Origin: Dipteris shenzhenensis
Taxonomy: Eukaryota
Length of the DNA stretch: 64,000 nucleotides
NCBI GenBank assembly: GCA_047967505.1
Contig: CM106538.1
Strand: one strand, 5' to 3'
Position numbers and translations under genes: made by a program. The notes under the pieces were generated by a model that was not told the origin of the DNA, did not search any database, and worked only from the letters and a program-made list of their open reading frames with translations. This document shows, in pieces, positions 9,010 to 39,723 of the stretch (the stretch's first letter is position 1; each line of letters begins with the position of its first letter).

Positions 9010-9104
9010 CATTTATGCTCTAAGCCTTGTAAAGCCTTTTAGGCTATTCCCAAAGCATTTATGCTCTAAGCCTTGTAAAGCCTTTTAGGCTATTCCCAAA
9101 GCAT
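9010..9104 (+). repeat. Tandem duplication of about 46 bp
   Basis: tttatgctctaagccttgtaaagccttttaggctattcccaaagca twice. Mirrored at about 21827-21921. Confidence 0.9.
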
Positions 9105-9236
9105 GAAATTGATACTTATATGATTGGGAAGAATAAAAACTTGAGGTGTATTAATGGGACTCATTGTACTTCTGATTTTTCAAAGTAATTGTAGTTTGTC
9201 AAAGTACTTAAAATTTGTGTTATGCTTGAATACAGG

Positions 9237-12200
9237 ATGGATCTTAAGGCTACAGCATTTGTCAATGGTATGACACTGAAATACAATGGAAGAATTTATG
9301 CCCCAAATGACTTCACAAACTGGACAGTTGTTGACACAACAAAGAAAGCATGGTTCTTGGTCTTAAGTAAAGGAAATCTCATTCTAGTGATGACAAAGAG
9401 AGAGTTGGAGAAAGATGAGTGGGCATCAAATGTATCTTTCTCAAAGAGCAATTTGATTCAAGGGGGCACCTTAGTAGGAATAAAAATTGAAAAAGACAGC
9501 AGTACAATGATGATTTACACAAAGTCAAGAATGAGCAACAGATCATTTCTTCTTTCTAAGAAAGATGCAATGCACTTTGTGATGCCGCTGCCAAAAGCAC
9601 CTATATTTCCTGAATTGGTTCCTACATTGGAGATCCTTCAACATGTGTGGGAGGAATTTCCCATTGAGGAAGCAAGAAAAATGCAGTCAAAGATTATCCT
9701 TGAATACTTTCAGGGTGTCATCCAACAAGGTTCAACTTCATTGGAGGGACCTAAGGTGCAATAATCCACACATGAGAAAGGAATTGATGAGACACGCCAT
9801 GTAGACCTGGTTTATGGTAATACAAATGAGAGAGGAAGTGGAGTGGATGAGACAGAACACATTGTAGCAATGGATGAGGGTCTTGTACATGTGGATGCTT
9901 ACAAGGGATCTACATCTGAGACAGGAATTGAATTGGCGGAGACCGGACATGCACATGCATCTCAGACAGAAATTGAATTGAGTGAGACACGACATGCATC
10001 GGATAAGACAGGACATGCACACACATCTCTTGTTCATGGTATTACTCACTTAGATGGTGTAACTCATGAAGTTGATGGAATAACAGAACAAGTGAAGCCC
10101 TTAAGTATACCTGAAGTTGAGGCAATAGAAGAAGAAGTAGGGCGATCTAAAGCAGTTCACATTGAGCCCTTAAAAAATAAACCTCGACGTCAAATGCAAA
10201 AGGCAAGTACTTCACGAGCTACAGTTCCAAGTCCTATAACTGGAAAAAGAGGTCGTTCATATACAAAGAAAGGGCAAAGAAGAGAAGAGGAAGAACATGA
10301 AGAGGATGTGGAGGGTCTTGAAATGGAGTCACATCTAGAAGCAAAAATGTTATCAATGAAGAACCTAAATCTTCGCTTGAATGAGGCTGTGACAGATGAG
10401 GATCCAGGATATATATGGGGCCAGAAGACTCAAGTTATACATGCTTCAACAGTGGTCAAAGCAAGTGTCTTCACCAACAGTAGGACCTTAGATACAGCCT
10501 ATGCTGAAAAGATTTTTCAGGCTTTGATTGATGGAAAAAAACCAATTGTTTCTAATTTGGTACTCCGTCCAAGAACATTTTGGCTAGTCATGGGAGATTA
10601 TAGTCAATCCATCAATTTCTCTTAGCCTATAGATTTTGAGATGCAATTCACTAAGTTCCTCGGAAAACAAGTTCCCTCACTTCAAGAAGGACAAAGTTCA
10701 GTGAATGATCCAGAACGACATATAAGGGATGCCAAGAGAAATTTCTTAGCTCATTGTACATTTGAGGCAATAGATGGTCAGCACTATGCCTATGCTTGCA
10801 ATGAGCGCTCTAGAGATACATACAAGAAAGGAGAAATTACTTATCGAACCTTCGCGAGTGTGCCTCAATTTCACTACTATTCTGCATGCATTTGTATCTT
10901 CAAGAATGAGAAAAAATATTTGATTGAGTCGGAAAGACTTAATCATGACACTTATGCACTACGAAAAATCACCTCCACTTCAGAGATGTTGCTCAAAGCT
11001 AGGACCATATGGAAAAGTTTTAATTCTCTTTTGACCACTCTCAAAAGAACTGCAACTAAAGTGGAAGCGGATAATCTTGTTGACTTCTACACATGCTTGA
11101 GTGCCATTGTACCAAGGGGAAAGCAGGAAAGAGCAGAGGTGATTACAAGCTTTAAGATAGTAAGGGATAGGTATCAAGACTACACAAGCATACTTTTCCG
11201 TAGTGATGAAGTTTTTCATTAGATCAAAGACGTGTGTCTTACATGTGAGAAAGGAGATGTCACATATGAGGCTCCATCATTGATTAAAGAGAAGGCAAAG
11301 AAGATTGAGAAAAAAGAGATGACAGCTCGGATGTGGAGGCCTTTAAGAAACCTACCAGACAAATACGCAAGTCTTGCTGCAGAGAAATTAATGTCCAAAG
11401 AATGGTTTTTTGGCAAAAAGGATAAAGATCATTGCATGGAAGATTGCATCATCCAACAGGTCAAGCGTGATGCAGTAAAGAGTGCAATTGAATATTTATT
11501 GGGAGAAAAAAATATTCCAATTAGCCAATGTAAAATTGATCATAACATTGTGAGGCAGATGGCATCAGCTTTACCGTCAGCTAAATAGAAGGCTTGGGCG
11601 CATAAATGGGTGAAGGTAGAAGATGATGGATCTGAAATTACTCCCTCTATGAGAAGTGACATTCCGGAAAATGTGTATGCATATGCACAAAAAGTCATCA
11701 ATAACCACACTCTTAGAAAAGAAAAAACTTTGAACAAGGGCTTTTATTTCATACATGAAATCATTTCAGAGTCTGGAAAGAGTGTTGAGTGCAAGGGAGT
11801 TTCATTGAATGATTTTTTGTCCGACGACACTGCTTGGGAGAGACCTCAGCTTTTCTTTGTCTATGAAATATCACCGGATGACATCCGTCAACTCCTTGAC
11901 AGAATATTACATACCACTATTGGTAGAGTGGGACAATGTAATATAGTCATATTTGCTGATAAAGATGACAAGGAACAAATGTCTGCTACCCTAGAAAAAC
12001 AATATGGCAATGAGCTCAAGATTTACAATGGGATATACTCAAGAAAAAGGGACAAGAGAGAATGTGGTCTCAAGATACAGAGTCTAGAAACCTTTTTCTT
12101 GTGCATGAAGAGCCCTTACAATGATCACTCCTTACAAAACAATATAAGAGGGAATGCAAAGAGATTGCAACTACTGCTAGAAGAGCATGAAGCTCCAAAT

Positions 12201-15068
12201 CCCCTCCATCGCAATGCAAATCACTATGAAAGGCCAGCAAAAAGTGTTGATCTTTTAATTAGTATGATGGAATTTTTGCTACCGTCCGAATGGGAAGTCA
12301 CATTGTGCCGAAAGGGACATCTGTTTGAAGCTCTTATCAGAAAAGGACACAATGTAAATATTATTGAGAGCCCTGCTTGCTTGGAATACCTTGATACCGT
12401 GGCCTCTCTCACAATAAAGTTTGATAAGAAAGGTCCGATCTCACATGAAGAGGATGACATAGAGATGATCATGTATGATGAGAGCAAGAAAGATGATGAA
12501 AATGATCAAAGCTCTGGATATAATAGTGAGGACACGAGCGATAGCAAGGAAGCAGAAGAAGATGGATATGACACTGACCTTGCCTCTGAAGGTTACATAA
12601 AAAGACCACGAAGATATGTAGAGGTATGAAAACTTATGTTTAATTTTCTTTATTCATTTAAAGGTCTTTTTAAATTTATAATTAATTTAAAATTTTGAAT
12701 CTCATAATTATTTTATCCTTTTATAGGAGAAGGGAGAGGAGGAGGATGAGGAGGACATAGCTGGAGCAGAGAATATAGAAAGCTCATCTCAAGAAAGCAA
12801 AGCTGCTCTGGGGCTATCCGTCGGATGACTCTAGAAAATAATCATACATTGCAGCAAATGGAGAAGTCATTTCAAGTTAGGTTTCAAGTTCGAGAACAAG
12901 CTCTTACTTTTATATTCAATGAAGAGGACATTTCAATCCTCATAAACTTCAAGAAAGAGGTCAATGACAAGGTCATAATAGCCATCCTCAGGTTTGACAC
13001 AAACTTTTTACTGACTTTATGCTTTTTCCATTGGATCAAATGAACTAATATTCTTTTCTTTTTATTGCAGTATGGTTTTACAATAGCTTCCGCTATATAT
13101 ACAAAGATGTGCATATATGGTCGATCCTCTTGTTTCTAGTGTACTTAGCAATAAGCAGAAGACCATAGATGATGTTTTTAAGTGGTTGCAACCTATTGAT
13201 TTGACTGCGTCACGAGTTATCTTTACCGCATATCACGAGGAGTGAGTATCAATCCCTACCTAGCTTATCTCTTACATTGTGGAAAATTATATCAAATAAT
13301 AATTATTCTTAATTGATAATGCAGCTTGCATTGGAGCTTGGTAATTGTAGACATCTTAGCCAAGCAATGCTTCTTTGTCAATTCAATAGCATCTATCCAT
13401 GGTAGTGTGTCAGAGTAAGTATCACCTACTTGTGTCATAATTATGTCAATGAGATGCATCCTATGCAATGCGCACATTCATTTATGTTTTCTATTTTGAT
13501 ATGTAGATCTGCTCGAAAGTTGGTAGGTGCTATAGATGCACTTATGCAAATGGAGGGTGACTTGGAAGATCAAATAGAGTATGTAACATGCCCTGCAGCA
13601 AAGCAAAATGATGACCACAGTTGTGGGTGGAGAGTCGGATATAACTGCTTTTTGCTCCTTGCTCAAATTTTTAATTTGAGAGGCGGTGAAACCTCATTGT
13701 CCACATATACAGACTTGCATCTATATGCATTTATGTCATCTATCATTAAGGCATTTATTGATAACATGGTGGAGCATCTAGAGGAAACATTGGTTGCTAC
13801 GCCCATAAGTTGTCCTAATGTAACCGCTGTATTGGACGAAATGGGGAGCTCTTCTAAGGTTAGGGTCATCATTAGCAAGCAACCTCATGTTTTGACTTTT
13901 GGTAGCGAGGAAGTTACAATCCTCTCTGACCCTTTGAAAGAGGCTAATGACAAAGTCATGATGGCCATCCTCAAGTTTGATATGAACATCTCTTGGCTTG
14001 ATACTTCAATCATTTGATTCAATCTGCTTCTAACATTTGTTTATTTATTGCTGCAGTACGGTTATATCTCATTTTCCTAAATCAGTACAGAATCGCGTCT
14101 GTATGCTCGATTCTCTTCTTTCAGCTGTACTTAGTGATACCAAGAAGACAGTAGATGATGTTTGTTCAATTCTACAACCTTTAGACTTGGATGGCATACT
14201 ACTTGTCTTTATGCCATACTATGAGAAGTAAGTATGGTCTCAATCTTTCTTTTACTCTCTTATTTATAATATTGTGTCAATTAATACTTAATATTGTGAT
14301 AAATCTTATCGCTCTTTATTGGTGATGTAGTTCACATTGGAGCCTGATAGTATGGGACCTTGATGACAACCATTGTTGGTTTGTCAACTCAATTACAGGC
14401 TTTCACGGGGTGTTCAGGTAAGTGTTCTTTTATCATATCATTATGAACATGCATCTTACTATTTACTACACAAATTCACTTTGTCATATGTCATGATGGA
14501 CAGGTCTGCAAACAAGTTAGTTTTTGCGATTATGAAAATCAGGGAGCATCAAGACCAACCAAATTTCCAGACACGCCTCGCAGTGGAGCAGAAAGACATG
14601 TTTAGTAGTGGGTGGAGAATTGCCTACAACTTCATGTTGTATCTCAATGAAATTTTTGAACATGTCTCCATAGAAGCATATACCAAGCTCGAGCTACAAG
14701 ATTTTGTGGCTAAGACTGTTCACTATCTAACTGCTATCATTGGGAAACAACATGATGGACTCAATGAAGAACCTGAGGGAGCCAAAGAAAAAGAAGAGAC
14801 AATTCAGTCTCCTTCTGTATCACAGCCTCAAGTAGAAGCATTACAGTCTACACTTGAATTAGAGACTCAATGCATTCTTCCCACACAAGAAGTGGAAACT
14901 CAATGTGCATCTACAACATCACATCTTGTAAAGGAGGAAGAGATTAAGTCTATCCCGATTGCACCAGAAGTAGAATCTCAATGTACACCATCCACACAAG
15001 TAGAGACTCAATGTACTCTTAGAGAATCCCAGCCTCAAGAGGACTCATCAGACTCTATTCAGTTGTAA
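9237..15068 (+). pseudogene. Large multi-exon cargo gene, copy 1: ParB/Srx-like region, possible degenerate N4/N6-MTase fold, two Ulp1 (C48)-like protease domains
   Basis: ORFs 9222-12629 lie in one frame separated by single stops (9762, 10623, 11220, 11586). GT-AG introns at about 12624-12727, 12991-13070, 13242-13324, 13417-13508 and again in the second repeat. Motifs FEAIDGQH, HWSLVIVD...QNDDHSCG and HWSLIVWD...QKDMFSSG. Confidence 0.75.
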
Positions 15069-15219
15069 AACATGTAGAAAGAAACATGAGTCCTTGAAGA
15101 TTTTTATCTTGTTTGTATTGATTAATGATAGTGTTTTTAAAACTTATGTTAAATGTTGCAATACATTAGGATATTTTATGATATTTATTCATTACAATAC
15201 ATTAGGTTTTACTTTTTTG

Positions 15220-15500
15220 AAAGTCTAATTTATTATGTATAATAAATATCTTATGATGAGAATCTAATAATTATATCATTCTTATGTTCCATCACTTTAT
15301 TTTATAGATTTCAATGTACTCAAAATCTATCATTTATTATGTACAGCAAGTCTAACTTATATTATATTAAAAGAATATCTCATGATGAGATTCTAATAAT
15401 TACTAACTTATATTATATTAAAAGAATATCTCATGATGAGATTCTATTAATTATATCATTCTTGTGTTCCATCATTTTATTTTATAGATTTCAATGTACT
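15220..15500 (+). repeat. AT-rich imperfect tandem repeats
   Basis: Recurrent tctaacttatattatattaaaagaatatctcatgatgagattcta and ttatatcattct...tagatttcaatgtact. Confidence 0.8.
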
Positions 15501-15639
15501 ATCACTATCTTACATGTCTCAAATGTCTCCCATTATGGTCTTGCATCCCATCATTTTATTTTATAATGTCTCGCATTACGGTCTTGCATCTAGTCATCTC
15601 GCATTACGGTCTTGCATCTGTAGTTCTATAAATTCCCTA

Positions 15640-16090
15640 GTAGTCGTTCATCTTCTATATCTCACCCGCAGCTGCAGCAGAGACTTCTTCCACTTTGCTC
15701 TTCTTACCTTACTCCTCTCCTCAAGCTTGCTCCTTCCTCTCCTCAAGCTTGCTCCTTCCATCTTGCCCGCAGCCTTGCCTCCTCTTCTCAAGCATACTCC
15801 TTTCATCTTGCCTTACCTCCTCTAGTTACCTTCCTCACTCTCGTTATCTTCCTCACCTCGTTCGTCTTCTATATCTTTCCTCACTCTCGTTACCTTCCTC
15901 ACCTCGTTCGTCTTTTATATCTCACCCGCAGCAAAAACTTCTTCCACTTTACTCTTCTTACCTTACTCCTCTCCACACTTCTTCCAGTACTTTACTCTTC
16001 TTACCTTACTCCTCTCCTCAAGCTTGCTCCTTCCATCTTGCCCGCGGCCTTACCTCCTCTTCTCAAGCATACTCCTTTCATCTTGCAACC
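15640..16090 (+). repeat. CT-rich imperfect repeats
   Basis: Repeated ctcttcttaccttactcctctcc, caagcttgctccttcc and cctcacctcgttcgtct blocks. Confidence 0.8.
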
Positions 16091-16093
16091 TTT

Positions 16094-16519: not shown

Positions 16520-16818
16520 AAATAGAAAATTCATCAAATTGAATGGCTGTAGTCATGAAAATCTCAGGCTTAACTTTTGAAGGTGTTTATTAACACCATT
16601 AAATATTAAGAGAGTTTACAACAACCGATTCTTATTTTTTCATGTAACTTATCTAGGCTGCGTTAAATTTTATAATTTTAGTTTCATGTCCTTAAAAAAA
16701 TATATAAAAAAATGCTTGTGTTTATGTTTTTATATGTGCTTTGAAGATTGGGTTTTTCTTAAATTTTATCTGAAAACTAGTCCAAAAGTATATGTAAAAA
16801 TGAATTTGTACATTGACA

Positions 16819-18679: not shown

Positions 18680-18853
18680 TCGCATAAGCTCATACTCATG
18701 CATGAGCATAAGCATGAGCTTACGCTTATGCTAATGCTTAAGCATAAGCATAAGCATAAGCATAAGCTCATGCTTATGCTCATGCATGAGCATGAGCTTA
18801 TGCTTAAGTTTCCCCCTTCTTTATTTCTCTATTTCAACATAAGCATGAGCATG
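18680..18853. repeat. CATAAG/CATGAG/CTTATG hexamer repeat tract at the rearrangement breakpoint
   Basis: gcataagcataagcataag and gcttatgctcatgcatgag runs. Confidence 0.85.
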
Positions 18854-21694
18854 ACTCTATATCTTGAGACCGCTTTCTCTCTTGTCCCTTTTTCTTGAGT
18901 ATATCCCTTTGTAAATCTTGAGCTCATTGCCATATTGTTTTTCTAGGGTAGCAGACATTTGTTCCTTGTCATCTTTATCAGCAAATATGACTATATTACA
19001 TTGTCCCACTCTACCAATAGTGGTATGTAATATTCTGTCAAGGAGTTGACGGATGTCATCCGGTGATATTTCATAGACAAAGAAAAGCTGAGGTCTCTCT
19101 CAAGCAGTGTCGTCGGACAAAAAATCATTCAACTCCCTTGCACTCAACACTCTTTCCAGACTCTGAAATGATTTCATGTATGAAATAAAAGCCCTTGTTC
19201 AAAGTTTTTTCTTTTCTGAGAGTGTGGTTATTGATGACTTTTTTTGCATATGCATACACATTTTCCGGAATGTCACTTCTCATAGAGGGAGTAATTTCAG
19301 ATCCATCATCTTCTACCTTCACCCATTTATGCGCCCAAGCCTTTTGTTTAGCTGACGGTAAAGCTGATGCCATCTGCCTCACAATGTTATGATCAATTTT
19401 ACATTGGCTAATTGGAATATTTTTTTCTCCCAATAAATATTCAATTGCACTCTTTACTGCATCACGCTTGACCTGTTGGATGATGCAATCTTCCATGCAA
19501 TGATCTTTATCCTTTTTGCCAAAAAACCATTCTTTGGACATTAATTTCTTTGCAGCAAGACTTGCGTATTTGTCTGCTAGGTTTCTTAAATGCCTCCACA
19601 TCCGAGCTGTCATCTCTTTTTTCTCAATCTTCTTTGCCTTCTCTTTAATCAATGATGGAGCCTCATATGTGACATCTCCTTTCTCACATGCAAGACACAC
19701 GTCTTTGATCTGATGAAAAACTTCATCACTACGAAAAAGTATGCTTGTGTAGTCTTGATACCTATCCCTTACTGTCTTAAAGCTTGTAATCACCTCTGCT
19801 CTTTCCTGCTTTCCCCTTGGTACAATGGCACTCAAGCATGTGTAGAAGTCAACAAGATTATCCGCTTCCACTTTAGTTGCAGTTCTTTTGAGAGTGGTCA
19901 AAGGAGAATTAAAAGTTTTCCATATGGTCCTAGCTTTGAGCAACATCTCTGAAGTGGAGGTGATTTTTCGTAGTTCATAAATGTCATGATTAAGTCTTTC
20001 CGACTCAATCAAATATTTTTTCTCGTCTTGAAGATACAAATGCATGCAAAATAGTAGTGAAATTGAGGCACACTCGCGAAGGTTTGATAAGTAATTTCTC
20101 CTTTCTTGTATGCATCTCTAGAGTGCTCATTACAAGCATAGGCATAGTGCTGACCATCTATTGCCTCAAATGTACAATGAGCTAGGAAATTTCTCTTGGC
20201 ATCCCGTATATGTCGTTCTGGATCATTCACTGAACTTTGTCCTTCTTGAAGTGAGGGAACTTGTTTTCTGAGGAACTTAGTGAATTGCATCTCAAAATCT
20301 ATAGGCTAAGAGAAATTGATGGATTGACTATAATCTCCCATGACTGGCCAAAATGTTCTTGGATGGAGTACCAAATTCGAAACAATTGGTTTTTTTCCAT
20401 CAATCAAAGCCTGAAAAATCTTTTCAGCATAGGTTGTATCTAAGGTCCTGCTGTTGGTGAAGACACTTGCTTTGACCACTGTTGAAGCGTGTATAACTTG
20501 AGTCTTCTGGCCCCATATATATCCTGGATCCTCATCTGTCACAGCCTCATTCAAGCGAAGATTTAGGTTCTTCATTGATAACATTCTTGCTTCTAGATCT
20601 GACTCCATTTCAAGACCCTCCGCATCCTCTTCATGTTCTTGCTCTTCTCTTCTTTTCCCTTTCTTTGTATATGAACGACCTCTTTTTCCAGTTATAGGAC
20701 TTGGAACTGTAGCTCGTGAAGTACTTGCCTTTTGCATTTGACGTCGAGGTTTATTTTTTAGGGGCTCAATGTGAACTGCTTTAGATCGCCCTACTTCTTC
20801 TTCTATTGCCTCAACTTCAGGTATACTTAAGGGCTTCACTTGTTCTGTTATTCCATCAACTTCATGAGTTACACCATCTAAGTGAGTAATACCATGAACA
20901 AGAGATGTGTGTGCATGTCCTATCTTATCCGATGCATGTCGTGTCTCACTCAATTCAATTTCTGTCTGAGATGCATGTGCATGTCCAGTCTCCACCAATT
21001 CAATTCCTGTCTCAGATGTAGATCCCTTGTAAGCATCCACATGTACAAGACCCTCATCCATTGCTACAATGTGTTCTGTCTCATCCACTCCACTTCCTCT
21101 CTCATTTGTATTACCATGAACCAGGTCTACATGGCGTGTCTCATCACTTCCTTTCTCATGTGTGGATTATTGCACCTTAGTTCCCTCCAATGAAGTTGAA
21201 CCTTGTTGGATGACACCCTGAAAGTATTCAAGGATAATCTTTGACCGCATTTTTCTTGCTTCCTCAATGGGAAATTCCTCCCACACATGTTGAAGGATCT
21301 CCAATGCAGGAACCAATTCAGGAAATCTAGGTGCTTTTGGCGGCAGCATCACAAAGTGCATTGCATCTTTCTTAGAAAGAAGAAACGATCTGTTGCTCAT
21401 TCTTGACTTTGTGTAAATCATCATTGTACTACTGTCTTTTTCAATTTTTATTCCTACTAAGGTGCCCCCTTGAATCAAATTGCTCTTTGAGAAAGATACA
21501 TTTGATGCCCACTCATCTTTCTCCAACTCTCTCTTTGTCATCACTAGAATGAGATTTCCTTTACTTAAGACCAAGAAGCATGCTTTCTTTGTTGTGTCAA
21601 CAACTGTCCAGTTTGTGAAGTCCTTCGGGGCATAAATTCTTCCATTGTATTTCAGTGTCATACCATTGACAAATGCTGTAGCCTCAAGATCCAT
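18853..21694 (-). pseudogene. Cargo gene copy 2, 3'-truncated
   Basis: Near-identical to copy 1. Shares the stops at 21167 and 20306 and has its own frameshifts near 20025 and 19130. Confidence 0.85.
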
Positions 21695-24600
21695 CCTGTA
21701 TTCAAGCATAACACAAATTTTAAGTACTTTGACAAACTACAATTACTTTGAAAAATCAGAAGTACAATGAGTCCCATTAATACACCTCAAGTTTTTATTC
21801 TTCCCAATCATATAAGTATCAATTTCATGCTTTGGGAATAGCCTAAAAGGCTTTACAAGGCTTAGAGCATAAATGCTTTGGGAATAGCCTAAAAGGCTTT
21901 ACAAGGCTTAGAGCATAAATGTGAAAAAAAATAAGGATTTACAATGATCTCTGAATACAAATTTGAAGTCTGTCATATATAAGTGCAAAATGCTCTGTCA
22001 ACTCCCGCAACTGATATAAGTGTAAAATGCTCTGTCAACTTCCACAATTGTAATCTGTCATGTCCACTGATACAACTTTCAATCATCTTGAAAGTTTAAA
22101 AACCTTAATCGTTGCTTAAATGGTAGGGTTGTTGTGACTGTGAAACCGAATGTGAACGAATGGACTGCCGATTAGGAACTAGTCGGGAAATTTTTAGCAT
22201 GGCTTTGATTGGTTTTTTTGGAGTTCTCTCCTCTAAGGACAAACTAATCTATGCTAATCTAGACTACACCAACCGTCGAAGCGAAGAAAAGCAAGAAATA
22301 ATTTCTTTTCCATTGTTCTTTTTAATATCCTTAGGTTGCGAATTAAAAGCAAAAAATAATCTATTTTCCATTATTCTTTTTAATACACTAAGGTTGTGAG
22401 TTTAAAAAAGATAAAATTTATATTTTATCTTTTTTAAACTCACACCCCTTTCTCTCTCTCTCTCCCCCCCTTCTCTCCCCCCCCCTTCTCTCTTGCTGCC
22501 GCCCCCATCCTCCCACCCCACCTCCCCCATTCTCACTCCCACGCCCACGTCCATTCTTTCACCTTCCCCATTCCCACTCCCTCTCCCACTCCCATCCTCC
22601 CACCCCTTTCTCTCTCTCTCCCCCCCTTCTCTCTCGCTGCCGCGGCAGTAGCCCCCCCCCTTCTCTCTCTCTCCCTCCCCCTTCTCATTTTAAAAAAGAT
22701 AAAATTTATATTTTCAAAAACTAATTTACTTACAACTCATAATAATTGAACATTCACATCAATAAGAAGTTAAAATCTTAATAAATTTGAATTTAAATAA
22801 TAAAAACTATAAAGTAGTTTAACTTAAAGTTTATGAAAAAATAACGTAAAATAAAGAAAACAAGACTTAAAATTAAAATTTTAATATTTACCTAGAAGAA
22901 TATATTAATTCTCCCAAAAAAGAAATAAATTAAAGTAATAATAACGAATGTAAGTTAAACTACTTTTAAAATTTTAATTTAAAATGTAATAAAATTAAAA
23001 TTATACTTTTTATATTCCAAAACAAAATGCATTATAGTCTAAATTAAACTAGTAAATTGAAAATGAAAGTGAAACTCATTTTAAATTCAAAAACAAAGAA
23101 AAATTTAAAATTCAAGTTTCTACAAGTTTTGCTTTTAGCATACATTTGTCTTTTCACATCCACGCATTTGTCTTTTGAAACACAAGGTTGTCTTTTATCA
23201 CAATTTTCAAGTTTTCACACGTTTAACTTTTCAAACACAAGGATTCATAGTTTAAAAAAAGGCGGGAAATTTGAAATTCTAGTTTCCACATGTTTCTCTT
23301 TTCGAACACTAAGGTTTATAGTTTTGTTTGTTTAAGTTTCGACTAAATCACACACCAATCTCCTCTAATATGCCTCATTGATCGTAGCTCCCAAATTCTT
23401 CCATCAAAACGTCTCTCCTTTATCTCTTCTTGATCGTCGCCCACTCATTTTTTCTCCTTATTGGTAAGATTTTCTATCTCGATCGTACTTTCGCTTGTGC
23501 CCTTCCTCTCTAAATTTTCATCAAACACTGAGGTTTATAGTTTTGTTTATTTAAGTTTCGACTAAATCACACACCAATCTCCTCTCATATGCCTGATTGA
23601 TCGTAGCTCCTTTATCTTTTCTCGATCGTTTCCCACTCATTTCTCCTCTTCATTGGTAAGATTTTCTATCTCGATCGTACTTTCTCTTGTGTCCTCCCTC
23701 TCTAAATTTTCATCTCTCATCCATCTCTCTCACTCTTCTCTCTCTCTCTTTCCTCTCCGCTCTCGTCTATGTTTCCTCTCATCTTAGTCTACTCTCTCCC
23801 CTCCTCTTCATTTCCCCTCTCTCTCTCTCTCTCCCTCTCTCCTCACCTTTTCCCTCTCTCTCACTTGCGCTCCCCACTCTCTCTCTCACTTGCCGCGGCC
23901 TCCCCCCTCTCTCTCTCTCCCCTCCCCTCTCTCTCTCTCCCCCCCTGTGTCTCTCTTGCTGCCGTGGCAGCGGCCTCCCCCCCTCTCTCTCTCTCTCCGT
24001 CTCTCTCTCTCCCCCCTCCCTCTCTTTCGCTGTCGCGGCAGCGGCCCCCCCTCTCTCTCTCTCTCCCCCTCTCTCTCACTGCGCCTCCCCCCCTTCTCTC
24101 TCTCTCCCCCCCTTCTCTCTCGCTGCCGCGGCAGCGGCCCCCCCTCTCTCTCTCTCCCTCCCCCTCTCTCTCGCTGCCGTGGCAACAGCCCCCCCTCCCC
24201 TTCTCTCTCTGCCACCCCCCTCCTCTCCCACCCCCTTCTCTCTCTCTCCCCCCCTTCTCTCTCGCTGCTGCGGTAGCGGCCCCCCCTTCTCTCTCTCTCC
24301 CTCCCCCTCTCTCTCGCTGCCGCGCCCCCCCTCTCTCTCCCCCCTCCTCTCTCGCTGCTGCAGCAGTGGCCCCCCCTGTCTCTCTCCTCTCCCCTCCCCT
24401 CCCTCCCTCTCCCCCCCCCTCTCTCCACTGCCGCGGCAGTGGCCTCCCCCCCCATCTCTCTCTCCCCCCCTCCTCTCTCGCTGCCCCCCCTCCTCTCTCG
24501 CTGCCGTGGCAGTGGCCCCCCCTCCTCTCTCTTTCTCCCTCCCCCTCTCTCTCGCTCTCGCATCCCCCCCCTTCTCTCTCTCCCCCCCGCTCCTCTCTCG

Positions 24601-28396: not shown

Positions 28397-31300
28397 ATGT
28401 TCTTTATAATGGTTGTTACAGCTTGTTTGCAAAGGAAACTCACAAAGGAGATGGCTACAAAATTTATTTCGGGGATGGAGGTGATTTTATGTTGCAAAAG
28501 AGAAGTAGTTGCATTTGCTACAATCCATGAAAGTGATCCAAATTCTATTTGTCACTTTAGAAGACTTGGCGAAGATAAGGTGGCGGTTATCGTATCAAGG
28601 ATTCTTAGTGCACATGTTGAGCTAAAGCATAAGTGTGGGGATATGGAAATCCTTGGAGATGTTATGCCCTATAATACTTCCAACAAAGCATTTATTGCAT
28701 GGGACAGAGATGAGACTTATCCAACACATGTCATCAGGAATACAAAGTGCATATCTTTGGATTTTAGAGTGGGAGATATTTTACAAATGTTAATCATTTA
28801 CAAATAAGTATGTAGCAGAAGGTCAAGTCTTGGGATTTGAACAAGTTGAACACTGGACATTTGTGCAAATGAGAATTCAAAAAGTTACTGATGATGGTAT
28901 GGATGATAACTCAATGTCATTGGATGGTCCCTACTATGAGGTAGGTAAGGATTTGAGATGGAGCATGCAATTTTTAAAGATTGGAAAGACTCGGCATGTG
29001 GTTTTTAATGATAAACATAATGTATACTACAACATCAAAGAATTGAAAGAATATGCCAATGTACCAAGCTCTATTCCTTCAGAGATGGATGATTCCAATG
29101 CACTCAACTATAGCACTGACGTCTTATCAGCAGATGTCGATGAGTTCATTGGTACCGAGAAAGAAAAATATTTCACAAGTGATGCCTTATCCGGGGTGGA
29201 TGAGTTCATGCACATTGAGAACTTGGGCAAAGATGTCAAAAGTGTTATATCTTCAAGCATGGATGGCTTCATGGATACTGATAAAGTTCTTGGAGTCAAA
29301 GCAGGTAACTATGGAATTATGGAAATCATGCACGATAGTATAATGAGTGATGTTCTCTCTGGAGTAGAGGAGTTTCAAGACTATGGAGTTATGAAATCCA
29401 TAGAAAGTGCATCAATGAGCGATGTTCTTTCAGGAATAGATGAGTTTGAAGATCATTCTGGACACTCTATCACCACTAACTATGGAGTTATGAAATCCAT
29501 AGAAAGTGCATCAATGAGTGATGTTCTCTCAGGAATAGATGAGTTTGAAGATCATTCGGGACACTCTAATGCCATTGTGACAAGTGGTTCTACGATTGTA
29601 TTAAAAGCAGGGATGAGATCAACAAAGGACTATTCGGTGTTTGACTTTGATTGTGAACTTGTAAATGTTACAAATGGTTTGAATGTATCAAAACCAAGGA
29701 GGACATCAACAAAGGAATATTCAGTATTTGACTATCAGAGTGATAAGATCAAGGATGCAACATCTCATGAAAACAACGTGACAAATAAATCTTACAAGGA
29801 GAACTACACAAATCCAAATAAGAATGTACAGAAGGTCCCAAAACGGACATACAAATGCATGAAAAGACAACGAGTGCAGGAAGATCCAGAAAAGCAACCA
29901 AAGAGAATAAGAGTAATGAATGAAGATGTTATGCTAAAAGCAATGCGATCTACATGTTGTAAGCATACATGTATGCGATCCATTAACTTACATGACATCA
30001 AGGGTTGTAGAGAACATGTCTGGCAAAGGAAAGGAAGCAGAAGAAATGAATACCTACTCACGAGATTGTCTTGCTTTCTTGTAAATGATAAGAGAAGGCG
30101 AAGTTCAGGACATCAAATAAGGCCTCTTATAAATGGAAAAAGTATATGCAATAATGCATATCGCATTATTACAGGATTATCACATGGCACATATTGGAAT
30201 TTGGCTAATAAAGCAAAGTATGGAGTTAAATTTAACATTCATGGAAACATAGGAAGGCCCAAAACAAGAGCCTCAACGGTTGCGGCAACAGCAATTTTGA
30301 AAGATTACATTTATGAAAATGCTTTACCGCAACCCCACCTATCAGAAATGCATCTTCCGATAGGTTTGACCAAAAAAGAAGTATTTAACTCTATTGGAGA
30401 AACACAGAGGCAAAGAGGGCATGCACCGCGGCATCTTTTCATACTTTGTATACTCTTTGGAAAAAAAGCTTTGGACATGTTAAAATCCCAAAGAGGAAAA
30501 AAATGTCAAAGTGCAACGACTGTGATGATCTAAAGTGAGCACTTGAGAGTGCAACATCTCCAGAACAAAAAGAAGCTTACAAAAGAAAGAGAGAATTTCA
30601 TCATGGACTTGTTTGACATTCTAGAATAAAATATGCATTTTGGAAGGAGCAAGCTATTTCTCACCCAAATGAGTACATGTGCATTATTGTAGATGGTATG
30701 GATCAAAATACAACAACATTACCTCGATTCGTTAACACTCCACCTAAGCTACAAGGCAAATACTTTTTAAAGACACATCTATGTGGAGTGTTAGTGCACG
30801 GATTTAAGTTTTTTGCATACATATGGATTGATTCCTTGCATCTACACGATAGCAATCAAGTTGTAACATCCGTTATGAAGGCAATTCACAATGTACATGT
30901 AGAAAAAGGTCGCCTACCAGCAACTTTGAGAATATAAGCAGACAATTGCGGACGAGAGAATAAGAATGTACTCTTCTTTGCATTTTGCTCAATGCTAATC
31001 GCTCATAGAATCTTCAATGAGACTGAAGTTGGGTTTTTGTTGGTTGGGCACACACATGAGGATATCGATCAGGTATTTAGCACAGTTTCAAAAGAACTAA
31101 AACACAAGGACATGGAGACAATGGATGACTTGATAAGAAAATGTGGGAGGCAAGTTGGTGGCCGTAAGGAAGGAACAATATGCTCAATGGTTGAGAGGAT
31201 GTATGATTGGAAGAGCTTTATTCTACCTTTCATACAAAAAGGTGGTGATGCCCTGATTGGTCATAGCGCTCCACACTATTTTCGATTTTTCTTAAAGGAT

Positions 31301-32161
31301 GAAAAACCAGTGATGCAATGGCAACACTATTCTCTTGATACAAAATGGGAACCTGAAGAACCTTACTCTCTCTTAACTTCAATCTCGAGCAAAGAAATGC
31401 ATCCAACATGGGCTCCTATAAAAGAATTCAGCGAGAAATCCAAAGGTGAAATAGAAGGCTTAAAAGCTTTTATTGCATACAAAGAGGAAATGCTCCGGAG
31501 ATTTCCTGATTGGAAGCCCTCTTGGAAGGAACACACTACTGTTGTAATTAGCAAGACCTACCAATTGATAAAGGACCTTGCAAAAATGCGAGAAGATGAT
31601 ATTAAGGCAGAACGGTCTTTATTTTGGCCAAATGTTGGTAATGACTTGCGTCCAGCATGTGGTCTCTTTGAAAATGAGTTTGAATCGTTGCTCCCACGTC
31701 CATATTGTGGACCCAAGAAGAGAGAGTTTATGCCACAAATAGACATAGATGTCCATTGTTTTGTTGCAGTTTGACCATCGGATGATGAACATGAGAACAT
31801 GAAATTTTGGGTTGCAAAAGTAGTTGACGTGAGCATGGATGACCGGGGGAGAGCTACAACATTTACAGCAGTATGGTATGAGCCAAGGGGCAGGAAGGAG
31901 AACCAAGATAACAGTACATTGTATAGTAGTTGTTTGAAAAAGGAATGGGTCCCAAACCATGAAGCAATTTCAAGACTTTCCATAGAGACAGTCATAGTAT
32001 CCTGGAAATCAAGGTCAAAGAAAACAAAGAAGCACATGGGGTATGATGTAGAAGACAAAATAAAATTACCGCAACCAATTATTACGCACATTACAGAGTT
32101 CACAAAGATGCTCGCCCGGGAGGAAGTAGAAGGAGATAGCACAAATGAAGAATGCCCATGA
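28397..32161 (+). pseudogene. Sola-like DDD/E transposase gene, disrupted by stops and frameshifts
   Basis: CCKHTC, INGKSICNNAY, HGN, VKIPK...SKCNDC, IIVDGMDQ, LPATLRI*ADNCGRENKN, FLLVGHTHEDIDQVFS, and C-terminal FWVAKV...WYEP. Superfamily assignment is from motif memory. Confidence 0.75.
29381..29568 (+). repeat. In-frame 99-bp tandem duplication
   Basis: YGVMKSIESASMSDVLSGIDEFEDHSGHS twice. Confidence 0.9.
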
Positions 32162-32872: not shown

Positions 32873-35800
32873 GTATTCTCTTTCGTCGTGAGCATGGAGA
32901 TTTGGCTAGTTGTCCAAAGTGTGGGGAACAACGATATAGAGATGACTTGCAGGGTGAGTGGATATCGGTAAAGGTCTTGAGACACTTTCCCATTATTGCA
33001 AGAATACAACACATGTTTCGATGCAAATCCATAGCGGAGTTGATGACATGGCATGCATCTCATCGGTCCACTGATGACACATTGAGGATTCCCGCAGATT
33101 GTGTAGCTTGGAAGCACACAGATAATCAGTGACCAGACTTTGCGAGGGAGCCACGCAACTTACATCTTGGGCTAGCCATGTATGGCGTGAATCCTTTCGG
33201 GTTACGCTCGACATCTTGGTCGACATGGCCCATAGTCATGGTGAATTACAATATCCCACCATGGCTAACAATAAAAAAGGGACACCTCATGCTTGCACTA
33301 CTTGTGCCAGGAAAGTACAAGGCAAAAAACATGGATGTGTACATGGCACCTTTGATAGAGGAGTTACAGATATTATGGAGAGGAGTGCAGGTCTTTGATA
33401 TTTCCAGAGCTCCTAGACATACCAATGATATTTTGGTCAGGGGTATCTTGATGTGGACCATGCATGACTACCCAGGGTATGGAGAGTGCAAAGGTACGTG
33501 GTTGTGTCTTTACATGTACAATGAGGGATTATGCTTTTTTTACTCTCTTTTGCATGCATGTCTTGTACTAACACATTCATGCACGCGTGCAGGACTTGTT
33601 CCAAGTGGGTACCATGCTTGTCCTATTTGTGGACCGGCTCTAAAATCGCTTGCACGCTACTCCAAACATATGAGGAAAAATGTTTATGAAGTTCATGCTC
33701 GATACCTTCCGCTCGACCATCTCGCACGTGGAGGTCAGCTTGATCCACCACCATCATATTTGAAGGCAAGTGATTGGATTCAAGCTTGGAGGGCAAATGG
33801 AGAGGAACCTCCTCCTGGTATGAAGAGGCTATCGATCTTTCACGAGCTTCCTTATTGGGGTCAGTTAAAAATCAACCATCTCTTGGATCCCATGCATATC
33901 TTCAAGAATGTGGGGGCTACTATTTGGGCACACTTGGTTGGTTCCAAGGACTCGAGAGGAGTGCGAGAAGACTTGCGTGCTATGAATAGGATGTCTCGTT
34001 TGTGGCCCCAAGTGCATGCTTCGGGAAAAGTTGTCCTCCCGAAAGCAATGTGGATCCTCTCTACGAGGGAGGAGGCAACAGTCAAGGCAGACATTGCCTC
34101 TTTTCAAACACCGACAGGTTACATGCGTTGCTTGAAAGGAGCATTTTCAAAGGACAATAAGCTTAGTGGCCTCAAGTCCCATGATTGGCACAAGGTCTTA
34201 CAGGTATTCTAAGTAGAATTAGTGTACTGATGATAGTGATGCGTTGGCGTAATTATTATTATGTTATATTGTTGACATGACTTCATTGTTGCTTTGATAG
34301 TTCATCCTCCCAATTACAATAAAAGGGTGCTTACAAGAAGATGTTAGAAATGCTATATTCAAGATCTGTGGTATTGTGAGGTATGCTTACTATCAAATCA
34401 CATTATGTATTTTCTTCATGGACATGTGAAATAGGTGGATATCTCAAATATCTTACATATGCATGGACATGTGAAATAGGTGGATATCTCAAAAGAGATC
34501 TCTATATCGAGCATCGAGAAGGCTAGGGTGGAATCCATCGAAGCCGTATGCTTGCTTGAGAAGCACTTTCCCTCGAGCATTATGACAACTCAAGTCCACT
34601 TGCTTGTGCACATAGTTGATGAGGTGGCTATAGCAGGTACCGTTCATAGTCGATGGATGTTTTTTCTCGAGCAATTTATGAAAACTTTAAAGGGGTTTGT
34701 AAGACAAAGAGCAAGACCAGAAGCAAGCATGGTAGAGGGATGGCTTGTGCAAGAGTCATTAGTATATATCACAGAGTTTCTTGCATCCACGGATCCTGAT
34801 ATGCCGCAAGCTTGGCATAACAAGGATGATGATCGCATCGTTGGCGAGGTTCCTCAAGGAGAAGGGATTGAAAGAAAGATGAGCGAAGAGCAAATGGAGA
34901 AATTCAGTAAGTTTTGTATCCTCAATAGCCCTGAGATGCAGAAGTGGAGTGAGAGATATGAAGTGGCCAAAGCAGAAAGAATAAATGCAAGGACGAGATT
35001 CAGAGTAATGTACAGGCGATCACAACCATATCCACGAGATCTGGCTCTTCTCCCTACTCACATGTCACTTGATTGGCTACAACTGGCTCTACGTAAAGCC
35101 GAACGTGATGGAGAGACAATAAGCGAGTGCGAGCGAGAGTTATCATCTGGATGTATGGTGCAAGTTTCTTATCTCTTGACGTAATTAAGTAATTATTTGT
35201 GGCAATATATGCTATAAAATAGGTGCATCTTCATTGTTTTAATGATGCTCTTTTACAGTACAAAAAGTACAGTGCATTATGGTCATATGGACGACATTCT
35301 CGTGTGGAACGCATTGATTCAAAGAGAGTCACATATGATTGTGGAGTCATGGATAACTTCACACAAGATAGCCGAGCAAGTGCTTCAGATACCAATCTTC
35401 TCTCCTCACAGTTGGATTATTGTGGAACCATATGCGACATCTATGAAATTGATTTCAGATGATTTACTATTTTCATTCTTGATGTAAAATGGTTTAGAAC
35501 TACTTACAACGGTCCCCATGCGACAGTGAGAAAAGATAGTAGCGGTCTCTTTGCAATAGACTCCACCAAACATTGGACCAATGAAAGTGATACTTTTGTT
35601 CTTCCCGAGCACTGTGAGCAGGTGCATACTAATGATTTAATTAGTCGAAGCTTTCGTTTTTAAAGTCCATTGATATATATATAATTGACGACATTTGGCA
35701 CCCATCTTCAATATAGGTGGTTTTTCATCCGGATCGTTCTGATCCAAGATGGTGGTACGTGATCCAAGTTGCACCACGAAGTAAGCAAATTTTTGAAGAT

Positions 35801-36309: not shown

Positions 36310-36474
36310 CGTCGCTATAATATTTTGTCTCAGTGTCGCTATATAGCGACTTTTTCTAAAAAGTCGCTATATAGCGACGATTTACGAAACCCACTTTTTA
36401 TACCGACGATTAGCGCTAAGTGGGTGCTAAACATCGGTACGTAAACGTCGTAATAGGATCCGCGTGTAGTAGTG
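36310..36474 (+). mobile_element. CACTA 3' terminus with subterminal repeats
   Basis: Ends GTAGTAGTG (reverse complement CACTACTAC), preceded by gtcgctatatagcgac repeats. Sequence switches to cargo-gene homology at 36475. Confidence 0.9.
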
Positions 36475-39400
36475 AATCCTTGAATACTTTCAAGGTGCCA
36501 TTAAACAAGGTTCAACTTCATTTGAGGGACCTAAAGTACAAGAATCCACACATGAGACACCTAAGGTGTAAGAATCCACACATGAGAAAGGAAGGGATGA
36601 GACACGCCCCTAAAAAATAAACACCGATGTCAAATGCAAAAGTTCATGAGCTATAGTTCCAAGTCCTATGATAGCTACAAGTACTGAAAAAAGAGGTTGT
36701 TCATCTATAAAGAAAGGGTGAAGAAGAGAAGATGAAGAACATGAAGAGGATGCAGAGGGTCTTGAAATGGACTCAGATATAGATTCAAATTTAGAAGCAG
36801 AAATGTTATCAGTGAAGAACCTAAATCTTTGTTTGAATAAGGTAGTGACAAATGAGGATCTAGTATATATATGGGGCCAAAAGACTTCAAGTTATACATG
36901 CTTCAATAGTGATCAAAGCAAGCATCTTCACCAATAGCAGGACCTTAGATATAGTCTATGTTGAAAAGATTTTTCGGGCTTTGCTTAATGGAAAAAAACC
37001 AGTTGTTTCTAATTTGGTAATCCGTCCAAGGGCATATTGGCCAATCAAAGGAGATTCTAGTCAATCCATCTCTTTTTTTCAACCTCAAGATTTTGAGATG
37101 GAATTCACTAAGTTCCTCGAAAAACAAGTTCCCTCACTTCAGGAAGGACAAAGTTCAGTGAATGATCCACAACGACATATGACGGATGCCAAGAGAAATT
37201 TCTTAGCTCAATGCACATTTGAGGCAATAGATGGCCAGAACTATGCCTATGCTTGTAATGAGCATCCTAGAGAGGCATACAACATTTAAGGAGAAATTAC
37301 TTATGAAACCTTCGTGAATGTGCCTCAATTCCACTATTATTTTGCATGCATTTGTATCTTCAAGAACGAGAAAAAATATTTGATTGAGTCGAAAAGATTT
37401 AATCATGACATTCATGCATTACGAAAGATCATCTCCACTTCAAAGATGTTGCTCAAAGCTAGGACAACATGGAGAACATTTAATTCTCCTGTGACCACTC
37501 TCCAAAGAACTACTACTAAAGTGGAAGCAAAAAATTTTGTTGACTTCTATACATGCTTGAGTGCGATTGTACCAAGGGGAAAGCAGGAAAGAACAGAAGT
37601 GATGACAAGCTTTAAGACAGTAAGGGACAGGTATCAAGACTACACAAGCATACTTTTTCGTGCAGTGATGAAGCTTTTAATCAGATAAAAGAAGTATGTC
37701 TTGCATGTGAGAATGGAGATGTCACATATGAGGCTCCATCATTGATTGAAGATAAGGCAAAGAACCAACTCATCATCAATGCTCTATTCTGAGCCACTGG
37801 AGCACAAAAAATCATCAATGAGCACACTCTCAGAAAACCAAAAACTTTGAACAAGGGCTTTTTTTCATACATGAGATTATTTTGATAGTTTGAAAAGAGT
37901 GTTGAGTGCAAGGGAGTTTCACTGAATGATTTCTTATTTGATGACACTGCTTGGGAGAGGCCTCATCTTTTCTTTGTCTATAAAATATCACCTAATGATA
38001 TTTGTCAACTCCTTAATAGTTTATTACATACCACCATTGGTAGAGTGGGACTATGTAACATCATCATACTTGCTGATAAAGAAGACAAGGAAAAAATGTG
38101 TGCTACCTTAGAAAAACAATATGGCAATGAGCTTAAGGTTTACAATGTTATATACTCAAGAAAGAGGGACAAGAGAGAATGCAGTCTCAAGATATAGAGT
38201 CTTGAAACCTTTTTCTTGTGCATGAAGGGCCCTTACAATGATCACTAATTATAAAACAACATAAGAGGGAATGCAAAGAGATTTCAACTAATGCTAGAAG
38301 AGCATGAAGCTCCAAGTCCCCTCCATCATAGCACCAATCACTATGAAAGGCCAACAAAAAGTGCTGATCTTTTAATTAGTATGATGGAATTTTTGCCGCC
38401 GCCCAGATGGGAAGTCACATTGTGTCGAATGGGACATATGTTTAAAGCTCTTATCAGAAAAGGACACCCTATAATTATTATTGAGAGCCCCGCTTGCTTG
38501 GAATACCTTGATATCGTGGCCGCTCTCACAATGAAGTATGATAAGAAAGGTTTGATCTCACATGAAGAGGATGCTGACATAGAGATGGCCATGTATGATG
38601 AGAGCAAGAAAGAGGATGAAAATGTTGAAAGCTCTGGATATGATAGTGAGGACACCAACGGTAGTGAGGAAGTTGAAGGAGATGGATATGACATTGACCT
38701 TACCTCAAAAGGTTACATAAAAGGACCACAAAGATATCTAGAGGTATGAAAGCTTATCCTTAATTTTCTTCATTTATTTAAAAGCCCTTTTTTTAATATA
38801 ATTAATTTAAAATTTGAATCCCATAATTATTTTATCCTTTCATAGGGGGAGGAAAAGGAGGAGGATGAGGAGCACATAGCTGGAGTAGAGAATATAGGAA
38901 GCTCATCTCAAGAAAGCAAAGCTGCTCTAGCTATCCATTAGATGAGTCTAGAAAACAATCATACCTTGCAGCAAATGGGGAAGTAATTTCAAGTTAGGTT
39001 TCAAGTTAGACAACAACCTCTTACTTTTGTATTCGATAAAGAGGACATTTCAATCCTTTTAAACTCCAAGAAAGAGGTTAATGACAATGTAATAATAGCC
39101 ATCCTCAGGTTTGACACAAACTTTTTCTTGACTTTATGCTTTTTTATTTCCATTGGATCAAGTAAACTAATATTATTTTCTTTTTATTATAGTATGGTTT
39201 TAGAACCACTTCCCCTATATATACAGAGACATGCAATATATATGGTCGATCCTCTTGTTTCTAATATACTTAGCAACAAGCAAAAGACCATTAATGATGT
39301 TTTCAAGTGGTTGCAACCTATTTATTTTACTGAGGCATGAGATATCTTTACTGCATATCACAAGGAGTAAGTATCAATCCTTACTTAGCTTATCTCTTAC

Positions 39401-39723
39401 ATCGTGGAGGATTATGTCAAATAATAATTATACTTAATTGATAATGCAGCTCGCATTAGAGCTTGGTGACTGTGGACATCTTAGCCAAGCAATGTTTCTT
39501 TGTTAATTCAATAGCATCTATCCATGGTAGTGTGTCATAATAAGTATAACCTACTTGTGTCACAATTACTTCAATTAGATGCATCATATGCAATGCGCAC
39601 ATTCATTTATGTTATCTATTTTGATGTGTAGATCGGCTTGGAAGTTGGTAGGTGTTATAGATGCACTTATGCAATTGGAAGGTGACTTAGAATATCAAAT
39701 AGAGTATGTAACATGCCCAGCAG
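36475..39723 (+). pseudogene. Cargo gene copy 3, older and more diverged, with internal deletions
   Basis: Colinear with about 9695-13597. Deletions near 36610 and 37765, many stops, same intron positions. Confidence 0.9.

Follow-up and report, generated by a model that had tools for sequence, protein, structure and literature searches.

What does a large, interrupted gene with prokaryote-like and Ulp1 protease-like parts encode, and how did it come to lie among transposons? This question is raised by a locus on contig CM106538.1 of the Dipteris shenzhenensis assembly GCA_047967505.1, where the gene (copy 1) is found on the plus strand at 9195-15068 of the window, which is the whole 64-kb stretch of DNA that was analysed. 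In the original prediction, made from the letters of the sequence, it was described as transposon cargo with a ParB-like domain, a possible dead DNA methyltransferase fold and tandem Ulp1 proteases, and a chromatin or anti-silencing role was proposed. The gene is present in three decayed copies, and the central part of its protein, the core, belongs to a family of its own. The explanation preferred here is that the genome is plant-like and that copy 1, like the two other decayed copies, derives from a large accessory gene which a CACTA-type DNA transposon carries or is associated with. Taken in its entirety, with the gene, the ancestry of the core and the proposed function, this explanation has an even chance of being right.

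Structure and decay of the gene

Both strings on which the prediction was based, NSRTLDTAYAEKIFQALIDG..NLVLRP..FEAIDGQH and RPAKSVDLLISMMEFLLPSEWEV..GHLFEALIRKGHNVNIIE, are located in a single plus-strand frame (9195-12629) of 1145 codons. This frame contains four in-frame stops, at codon 190 (TAA) and at codons 477, 676 and 798 (TAG). Seven exons follow (12727-15068), all with GT-AG borders, and when spliced these make up one frame with a single TAG, at 13084. The features of copy 1 are:

9195..12623, plus strand: exon 1, one long frame with stops at 9762 (TAA), 10623, 11220 and 11586 (TAG) and a GT donor after 12623
9765..10400, plus strand: acidic and His-rich low-complexity stretch, largely missing from copy 3 and not conserved; ratio of non-synonymous to synonymous substitution rates (dN/dS) 0.94
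10401..11060, plus strand: domain D1 (the 'DGQH' domain), a candidate degenerate ParB/Srx domain (DndB/DGQHR-like) on alignments, hhalign, a model and fold searches; motifs GYxWG, TNxR, LxLRP, (W/F)E(P/A)(V/I)DGQH..AC, ESxRxN and KxRxxW
11061..11768, plus strand: mostly helical linker, conserved with distant relatives, with WxRPL and KRxAVxxA motifs
11769..12416, plus strand: domain D2, alternating beta/alpha, a candidate catalytically dead beta-class N6/N4 methyltransferase fold
12417..12623, plus strand: acidic tail, dN/dS 0.93
12727..12991, plus strand: exon 2, acidic linker and start of Ulp1 domain 1
13071..13241, plus strand: exon 3, Ulp1 domain 1, with a TAG stop at 13084
13325..13414, plus strand: exon 4, Ulp1 domain 1, with HWSL (catalytic His) and FFVNS (Asn at the catalytic Asp position)
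13507..13974, plus strand: exon 5, with KQNDDHSCGW of Ulp1 domain 1 (Gln and catalytic Cys), continuing into the start of Ulp1 domain 2
14057..14227, plus strand: exon 6, Ulp1 domain 2, read in the spliced frame
14331..14417, plus strand: exon 7, Ulp1 domain 2, with HWSL and WFVNS
14504..15068, plus strand: exon 8, Ulp1 domain 2, with EQKDMFSSGW (Ser for the catalytic Cys), then an E/Q/T-rich tail and the stop codon

Exon 2 of copy 1 is frameshifted near 12826; copy 3 has a single frame in the same part. An intact protein would have about 1,700 residues, in the order N-terminal region, acidic/His-rich spacer, a core of about 700 residues (D1, the helical linker and D2) and acidic tail, and in this lineage would end in two tandem Ulp1/C48 domains. 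Just past the stop codon of copy 1, at 15221-15500, are tandem repeats of about 51 and 178 bp, after which Pro/Ser/Leu-rich repetitive frames continue to about 16100.

Splicing of the exons, hhalign alignment to Peptidase_C48 and the neighbours found in the Atlas all bear out the tandem Ulp1-like domains of the original prediction. The two domains are 41% identical (82/202 aligned positions). Alignment of the spliced pair with 15 bacterial Peptidase_C48 (PF02902) regions gave P 2.6e-6 and a probability of 88.6% over 120 columns, with HWSL on HWSL, VNS on YDS and KQNDDHSCGW on Q..CG. Among the 30 clusters nearest to exon 5 in the Atlas search, 26 have Peptidase_C48 (top score 0.96). The unspliced frames gave C48 in Pfam hmmscan only at E 0.18 (HW exon, 12.1 bits, under the 20.7-bit cut-off), and a word-indexed protein search with the Ulp1 exon gave no match.

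The catalytic His (HW motif) is present in both Ulp1 domains as HWSL. The catalytic Asp is replaced by Asn (VNS) in both domains and in copy 3, which counts against the explanation preferred here. Because both domains and copy 3 have Asn, this change predates the internal duplication of the Ulp1 domain. The Q..CG motif is present in domain 1 (KQNDDHSCGW) and has lost its Cys in domain 2 (EQKDMFSSGW, with Ser). From these residues, a His-Asn-Cys set might still make domain 1 functional, and domain 2 looks like a pseudo-protease.

The three decayed copies of the gene were found by self-comparison of the window. Copies 1 and 2 are part of a 6.8-kb inverted duplication (5304-12084 against 25589-18853, 95.9% nucleotide identity) with a 6.8-kb spacer. 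This generates a large palindrome that takes in both copies and the neighbouring G/A-rich satellite, with the Ulp1 exons contained in the spacer. The two further copies are:

18773..21736, minus strand: copy 2, inside the inverted duplication, truncated near codon 1000, with its own stops and indels
36440..39723, plus strand: copy 3, matching copy 1 at 86-88% of nucleotides and about 77% of amino acids, with its own deletions and stops

Copy 3 is older than the inverted pair (about 87% against about 96% nucleotide identity), and its likeness to copy 1 stops at 39723, within Ulp1 domain 1. Gag-like zinc-knuckle and RVT_1 frames are present downstream of copy 3 (39723-43012). The sequence suggests a nested retrotransposon insertion after 39723.

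For every exon 1 stop of copy 1, at least one sister copy has a sense codon instead (CAG, CAA or GAA), and the stops should therefore be seen as decay. Recoding of TAG was considered and rejected on the same codons. Copies 2 and 3 bear stops and indels other than those of copy 1. To judge from these lesions, all copies in the window are independently decaying pseudogenes. Measurement of dN/dS among the copies, as had been proposed, gave 0.82 between copies 1 and 2 (1008 codons) and 0.54 overall against copy 3 (760 codons), with 0.64 in D1, 0.37 in D2 and about 0.93 in the acidic stretches. This pattern fits past purifying selection followed by neutral decay. Of the sequencing runs listed as containing the region, three were DNA runs, from two studies, and none was of RNA.

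A phmmer search of 1.84 billion representatives with the core gave 9 matches at E ≤ 0.001, 3 of these at E ≤ 1e-10. Four of the nine are short fragments (26-53% identity), and one matched cluster is named, as a lycophyte hypothetical protein. A distant group is formed by P0006, P0008, P0009 (1097 aa) and P0010, together with P0013 (1199 aa, from the cluster of P0008). The members of this group follow the window protein colinearly from D1 through the linker to D2 but have no Ulp1 domain, and P0009 and P0013 are full-length. The motifs GYxWG, TNxR, LxLRP, (W/F)EP(V/I)DGQH..AC, ESxRxN, KxRxxW, WxRPL, KRxAVxxA, LPSxW and (R/N)V..(E/D) are family-wide. Judged by this conservation, the core is a real, unannotated, conserved eukaryotic family.

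Other searches for relatives gave nothing further. A word-indexed protein search with residues 400-1100 of the window protein had no match, nor did one with the family alignment, which missed the known relatives as well, probably through swamping by acidic low-complexity words. A metagenome locus scan with the distant subgroup gave 126 pattern matches and 0 confirmed, and tblastn against phages gave no match. No description of the core family was found among the literature matches listed. The novelty lies in this core family and in the two atypical Ulp1 domains to which it is fused, next to a CACTA transposase. The predicted N terminus of P0013, MARTKQTAR, is like the histone H3 tail and is either a real tail mimic or an artefact of the gene model; as a sequence, it hints at chromatin mimicry.

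Candidate ancestry of D1 and D2

Reference alignments were taken from prokaryotic genomes and comprise 63 ParB_N domains, 43 N6_N4_Mtase domains and 23 DndB/DGQHR proteins, with 13 of the reference proteins carrying both ParB_N and N6_N4_Mtase. The best profile match of D1 is to the DndB/DGQHR set (23 sequences; hhalign score 25.1, P 0.014). In the permissive alignment, which stays colinear for 196 columns, (W/F)EPVDGQH..AC sits on iiDGQHR, and three consecutive ParB/DndB motif sites occur in the correct order in D1. None of 200 column shuffles reached this score (mean 11.6, maximum 21.0), and the reversed control scored 14.5. Comparison by VIA placed the entire N-domains of Noc, ParB and Noc on residues 23-173 of the D1 model (Z 2.8, 2.5 and 2.3; 71-73 residues), and ParB, Noc and Spo0J chains are among its weak Foldseek rows (Noc and Spo0J at E 2-3). 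The resemblance of D1 to ParB/Srx domains of the DGQHR type is suggestive only, and it is moderately probable that D1 has a degenerate ParB/Srx-like fold.

The permissive hhalign alignment of D2 with the methyltransferases is colinear over 208 columns and puts RPAKSVDLL..LPSEWEV..GHNVNIIE on HPtxKPxxL..gdiVLDPFxGSGTT..R..igiE. The strands and helices of the low-confidence D2 model alternate, in the sequence expected of beta-class enzymes (IV-VIII, then the target-recognition region, then X and I-III). Rank 1 of the Foldseek search against the PDB is M.RsrI (E 0.054, 245 columns). N6/N4 DNA methyltransferases make up 9 of the 36 listed D2 rows, as six enzymes (RsrI, the Mbo45V Mod subunit, BceJIV, HpyAVI, MboIIA and CcrM), and 0 of about 48 rows listed for the D1 model. 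RsrI is of the PF01555 type according to its PDB entry title, and the other five we take to be of this type as well. In BFVD, rank 1 for D2 (E 0.017, 330 columns) is held by a phage protein of 494 aa with the label ParB/Sulfiredoxin, from its length presumably a ParB-methyltransferase fusion; ranks 4, 31 and 41 are labelled DNA methylase N-4/N-6. The resemblance of D2 to a dead beta-class methyltransferase is likewise suggestive only, and a methyltransferase derivation of D2 is moderately probable.

A different origin of the core is quite possible, although short of probable. The gene would then still be transposon-borne with tandem Ulp1 domains, while D1 and D2 would be lineage-specific folds whose likeness to ParB and methyltransferases is due to chance motifs, and the core would be a protein of unknown ancestry with a TnpA-like accessory or DNA-binding role. 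The evidence favouring this weighs against the ancestry preferred here, and begins with the domain libraries, in none of which D1 or D2 has a match. There was no relevant match for the core in Pfam (10 open reading frame (ORF) pieces, none of which reached a cut-off, and 13 family members at E ≤ 10) or in NCBIfam, PADLOC or PHROGs (13 family members, E ≤ 10), and sequence-profile searches of the PDB gave only acidic-tail or chance rows. The alignment of D2 with the 43-sequence PF01555 set is not above chance (score 12.4, P 0.5). That of D1 with ParB_N has P 0.038. Among pairs of unrelated alignments compared as controls, P is 0.034 for the D1 subgroup with the methyltransferase set and 0.085 for D2 with C48, in a range of 0.034-0.09, and the P of 0.014 for D1 and DndB is therefore barely outside the null. 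In hidden Markov model (HMM) searches of single family members against the ParB_N, DndB and methyltransferase HMMs, none scored above shuffles. An Atlas search with the D2 ORF was uninformative (best score 0.85).

The structural models add to these points. The AF2 models are poor, with a mean predicted local distance difference test (pLDDT) of 46.8 for D1 (395 residues, 11 sequences) and 43.2 for D2 (276 residues, 6 sequences), and at such values structure matches are unreliable according to the warning of the fold-search tool itself. The alignment underlying the D2 model is partly doubtful, as the first half of D2 is probably misaligned for P0013 and P0009, which may have hurt the model; MAFFT smeared the D2 piece across the whole of the long relatives, and E-INS-i was poor in the C-terminal half. 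Neither model had a Foldseek match at E ≤ 0.001, D2 against the PDB included. With VIA, the methyltransferases score Z 3.3-3.6 on the D2 model (HpyAVI and MboIIA 3.6, 127-128 residues), below the unrelated chorismate mutase (Z 4.6), and the Z scores are overall no better than for unrelated folds. Over 48,161 chains, the VIA top 50 contained no methyltransferase for the D2 model, where the best matches are designed P-loop-like folds (Z 5.5) and otherwise generic alpha/beta folds, and no ParB for the D1 model, where the best are helical fragments (Z 4.5); with models this poor, these absences do not show that the folds are absent.

Chance resemblance is in turn opposed by the shuffles and the ordered motif sites of D1, by the N6/N4 methyltransferases that top two structure libraries for D2 and are missing from the list for D1, and by the order of D1 and D2. 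This is the order of the 13 natural bacterial fusions of ParB_N (PF02195) and N6_N4_Mtase (PF01555) that were recovered, which are about 410 aa long. The predicted patterns have thus fared unevenly. Both sets of strings are present, that of D1 slightly above chance and set back by its controls and by the loss of an arginine described below, that of D2 with structural rankings in the predicted direction from a low-confidence model and with the sequence match at chance. In the fold check that had been proposed, neither the ParB/Srx nor the methyltransferase fold was predicted with confidence from these poor models, or refuted by them.

The residues expected of active enzymes are missing, and this also weighs towards chance motifs. 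The active-site Arg (GxxR or DGQHR) is described as typical of the ParB/Srx superfamily in the available text of one study (PMC5512222). In 9/9 family sequences DGQH is followed by Y, V, I or F, so that this conserved Arg is absent. Methyltransferase motif IV, (D/N/S)PP(Y/F), is absent in 5/5 sequences, its position being occupied by EISP (window and copy 3), NELQ (P0004) or LPPG/LPPS (P0013 and P0009). Likewise, FxGxG is absent in 5/5 sequences, the position aligned with DPFxGSGTT reading LCRKGHL, LYQMGFA, LVGLTNC or VQGLTAT (CRKGH in the window). The lack of DPPY and FxGxG, remarked on in the original prediction, therefore extends to the family alignment.

It is on account of the replaced motif IV, the absent S-adenosylmethionine (SAM) loop FxGxG and the absent ParB Arg that activity of the intact copies is very improbable. 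They would in that case have encoded a ParB NTPase or nickase, with D2 a working adenine/cytosine-N methyltransferase marking the DNA of the element. The one argument for such an enzyme is the architectural parallel with bacterial ParB-methylase fusions, one of which has a nicking ParB domain in the part of its description available (PMC5512222).

Returning to the preferred explanation, the assignments of D1 and D2 are not independent, since a ParB domain with a beta-class methyltransferase after it is a fusion already known. That both are correct has at best an even chance. We infer the ParB and methyltransferase ancestry, as we do all function of the gene. The core would descend from a prokaryotic or phage-type fusion of a ParB/Srx domain with a beta-class N6/N4 methyltransferase, and the ParB arginine, motif IV of the methyltransferase and its SAM-binding loop would since have disappeared from it. 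Because residues for the ParB nuclease or NTPase, for methyl transfer and for SAM binding are missing, the core is best seen as a binding module rather than an enzyme, and it may act on DNA or chromatin.

Transposon context

The association with a transposon that had been predicted agrees with what is found in the window, where the gene is multi-copy and decayed and one copy is located just downstream of a Transposase_21/DUF4218 gene on the same strand. Two gene remnants precede copy 3:

33075..35184, plus strand: CACTA-type transposase remnant (Transposase_21 E 1.2e-47; DUF4218 E 1.8e-23), on the strand of copy 3 and 1.3 kb upstream of it
28794..32161, plus strand: large gene remnant that matches DUF7869 over nearly its full length (E 3.4e-49), shortly before the CACTA transposase

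The DUF7869 gene may be a third gene of the same CACTA element; no mention of DUF7869 was found in the literature searched. Terminal inverted repeats of the CACTA type or 3-bp target-site duplications enclosing the gene were not found, pattern and inverted-pair searches giving only pairs made by the palindrome, and this too weighs against the preferred explanation. The ends may have diverged, or may have been disrupted by nested insertions. Since no element ends were found in the window, the transposon link rests on copy number, decay and adjacency. It is from the adjacency and copy number that we infer carriage of the gene within the transposon. Rather than cargo, it could just as well be an accessory ORF belonging to the element itself.

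The missing termini and duplications also fit another origin, from a cellular gene that was copied by segmental duplication and became pseudogenised, or from a host gene that was captured (transduplicated), with the copies lying near transposons only because the region is rich in repeats. Copies 1 and 2 have no adjoining transposase in the Pfam scan of the window, which found no Pfam family in 15069-18900, and they form a local palindrome. The window is filled with plant-like repeat DNA in which unrelated copia and gypsy polyproteins are crowded. In the available text of two studies, Ulp1 in plant transposons is generally viewed as captured host sequence (PMC2528002, PMC13317346). Such an origin is nonetheless improbable in light of the three copies of unequal age within 30 kb, all of them decayed, of the position and strand of copy 3 relative to the Transposase_21/DUF4218 gene, and of the relatives elsewhere, which are mostly short fragments on short contigs, as is usual for repeats.

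Several further features of the window were noted. A 99-bp unit is repeated 1.9 times (96% identity) at 29380-29568, inside the 579-codon ORF 28794-30533. At 27459-28295, directly upstream of the block formed by DUF7869, the transposase and copy 3, the plant-type telomere repeat (TTTAGGG)n forms an interstitial array of about 119 TAGGGTT units (78% matches). Purine-rich satellite arrays (GAGAGGGG.., with GCAGCG cores) have periods of about 50-470 bp and a mirror image; these and a CCCACT-type array are located at 5327-7009, 23851-26106 and 26447-27315, with GC up to 0.71 and extreme strand skew. On the minus strand, a 147-codon open frame (43970-44410) has a histone H3 fold (Pfam Histone E 2.2e-30), with a divergent Gly/Arg/His-rich N-terminal part and no Met. 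This frame may be an exon of a CENH3-like protein or H3 variant, or a pseudogene.

Comparison with known systems

ParB-methylase fusions are known and are present on mobile elements, for example Bce_0392, in the available text of their description (PMC5512222). Like these fusions, the core of the window protein has a ParB-like N-terminal part and a beta-class-like alpha/beta C-terminal part. Unlike them, it has a linker of about 240 residues, rather than about 65, and lacks the ParB Arg, DPPY and FxGxG. There is no significant profile similarity between the window protein and the fusion set (hhalign P 0.45-0.55), and the window protein is eukaryotic, with introns and Ulp1 domains. With DndB/DGQHR (PF14072), D1 shares the DGQH core motif and a long insert between the second and third ParB-like strands. 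It differs in the replaced Arg of DGQHR (9/9 family sequences), in having no Pfam match and in having no dnd genes.

Adenine methyltransferases linked to ParB are also found in eukaryotes. Those described in the available part of one publication are chlorophyte and chytrid proteins that join a ParB-helix-turn-helix part to Dam, and a haptophyte clade derived from ParB-terminase loci (PMC4738411). They are a precedent for the transfer of phage ParB-associated methyltransferases into eukaryotes, as far as that text describes them (PMC4738411). Unlike the window family, they belong to other methyltransferase groups and have kept their catalytic motifs, and the window family is not mentioned in the available part of this description (PMC4738411).

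The Ulp1 domains have parallels closer at hand. CACTA-ULP elements, which combine Tnp2 with ULP1, are known in grapevine and rice, and as in the window an Ulp1-like region is there linked to CACTA-type (Transposase_21) elements in plants, according to the available text (PMC2528002). In those elements Ulp1 is joined to the transposase or lies beside it, whereas in the window it forms the end of a separate large gene with the D1/D2 core. The descriptions, in the text available, mention no ParB-like or methyltransferase-like part (PMC2528002).

The comparison that bears on function is with the VANDAL elements. VANC proteins cause a sequence-specific loss of methylation in their own element family, and VANC is in some families fused to Ulp1 and recognises its own element; these VANC-Ulp1 (KIU) genes act against silencing, as reported in the available text (PMC13317346). 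By analogy with the VANC and KIU genes, the intact window protein might have bound the DNA of its own element. The Ulp1 part, with domain 1 as a His-Asn-Cys protease and domain 2 as a pseudo-protease, might have deSUMOylated chromatin proteins or bound SUMOylated ones, and this action would have favoured transposition or countered silencing. A chromatin or anti-silencing role of the protein is in this way suggested by analogy.

A wider reading can be proposed tentatively and is itself unlikely. This is that the gene represents an old eukaryotic transposon-linked family, derived from a phage or plasmid fusion of ParB with a beta-class methyltransferase, that lost all catalytic residues, became a DNA-recognition module and, in this lineage, gained two atypical Ulp1 domains, and is thus the CACTA counterpart of the VANC/KIU anti-silencing factors. 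KIU/VANC is the one studied case of an Ulp1-bearing plant transposon escaping silencing by DNA methylation. If a dead ParB-methyltransferase module does serve this CACTA-linked family for DNA binding, the window gene would be a second, independent design of a transposon anti-silencing factor, and a domain pair of prokaryotic mobile elements would have been kept as a non-enzymatic scaffold in eukaryotic transposons. It would also provide a name and a testable hypothesis for a family without an entry in the four domain libraries searched. The present value of the locus is that of a lead, the copies being dead and the fold assignments unproven.

The likeness of the window protein to KIU (Kaonashi), the VANC-Ulp1 protein of VANDAL elements (Mutator-like elements without terminal inverted repeats) in Arabidopsis, is that both are transposon accessory proteins in which a presumed DNA-recognising part, distinct from the transposase, is combined with Ulp1/C48, as far as KIU is described in the text available. 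Unlike KIU, the window gene neighbours a Transposase_21 gene of the CACTA type, from another transposon superfamily. The roughly 1,100 residues of the N-terminal part of its protein belong to an unannotated family with no relation to that of KIU. The Ulp1 domain is duplicated in tandem, both repeats having Asn in place of the catalytic Asp and the second one also Ser in place of Cys.

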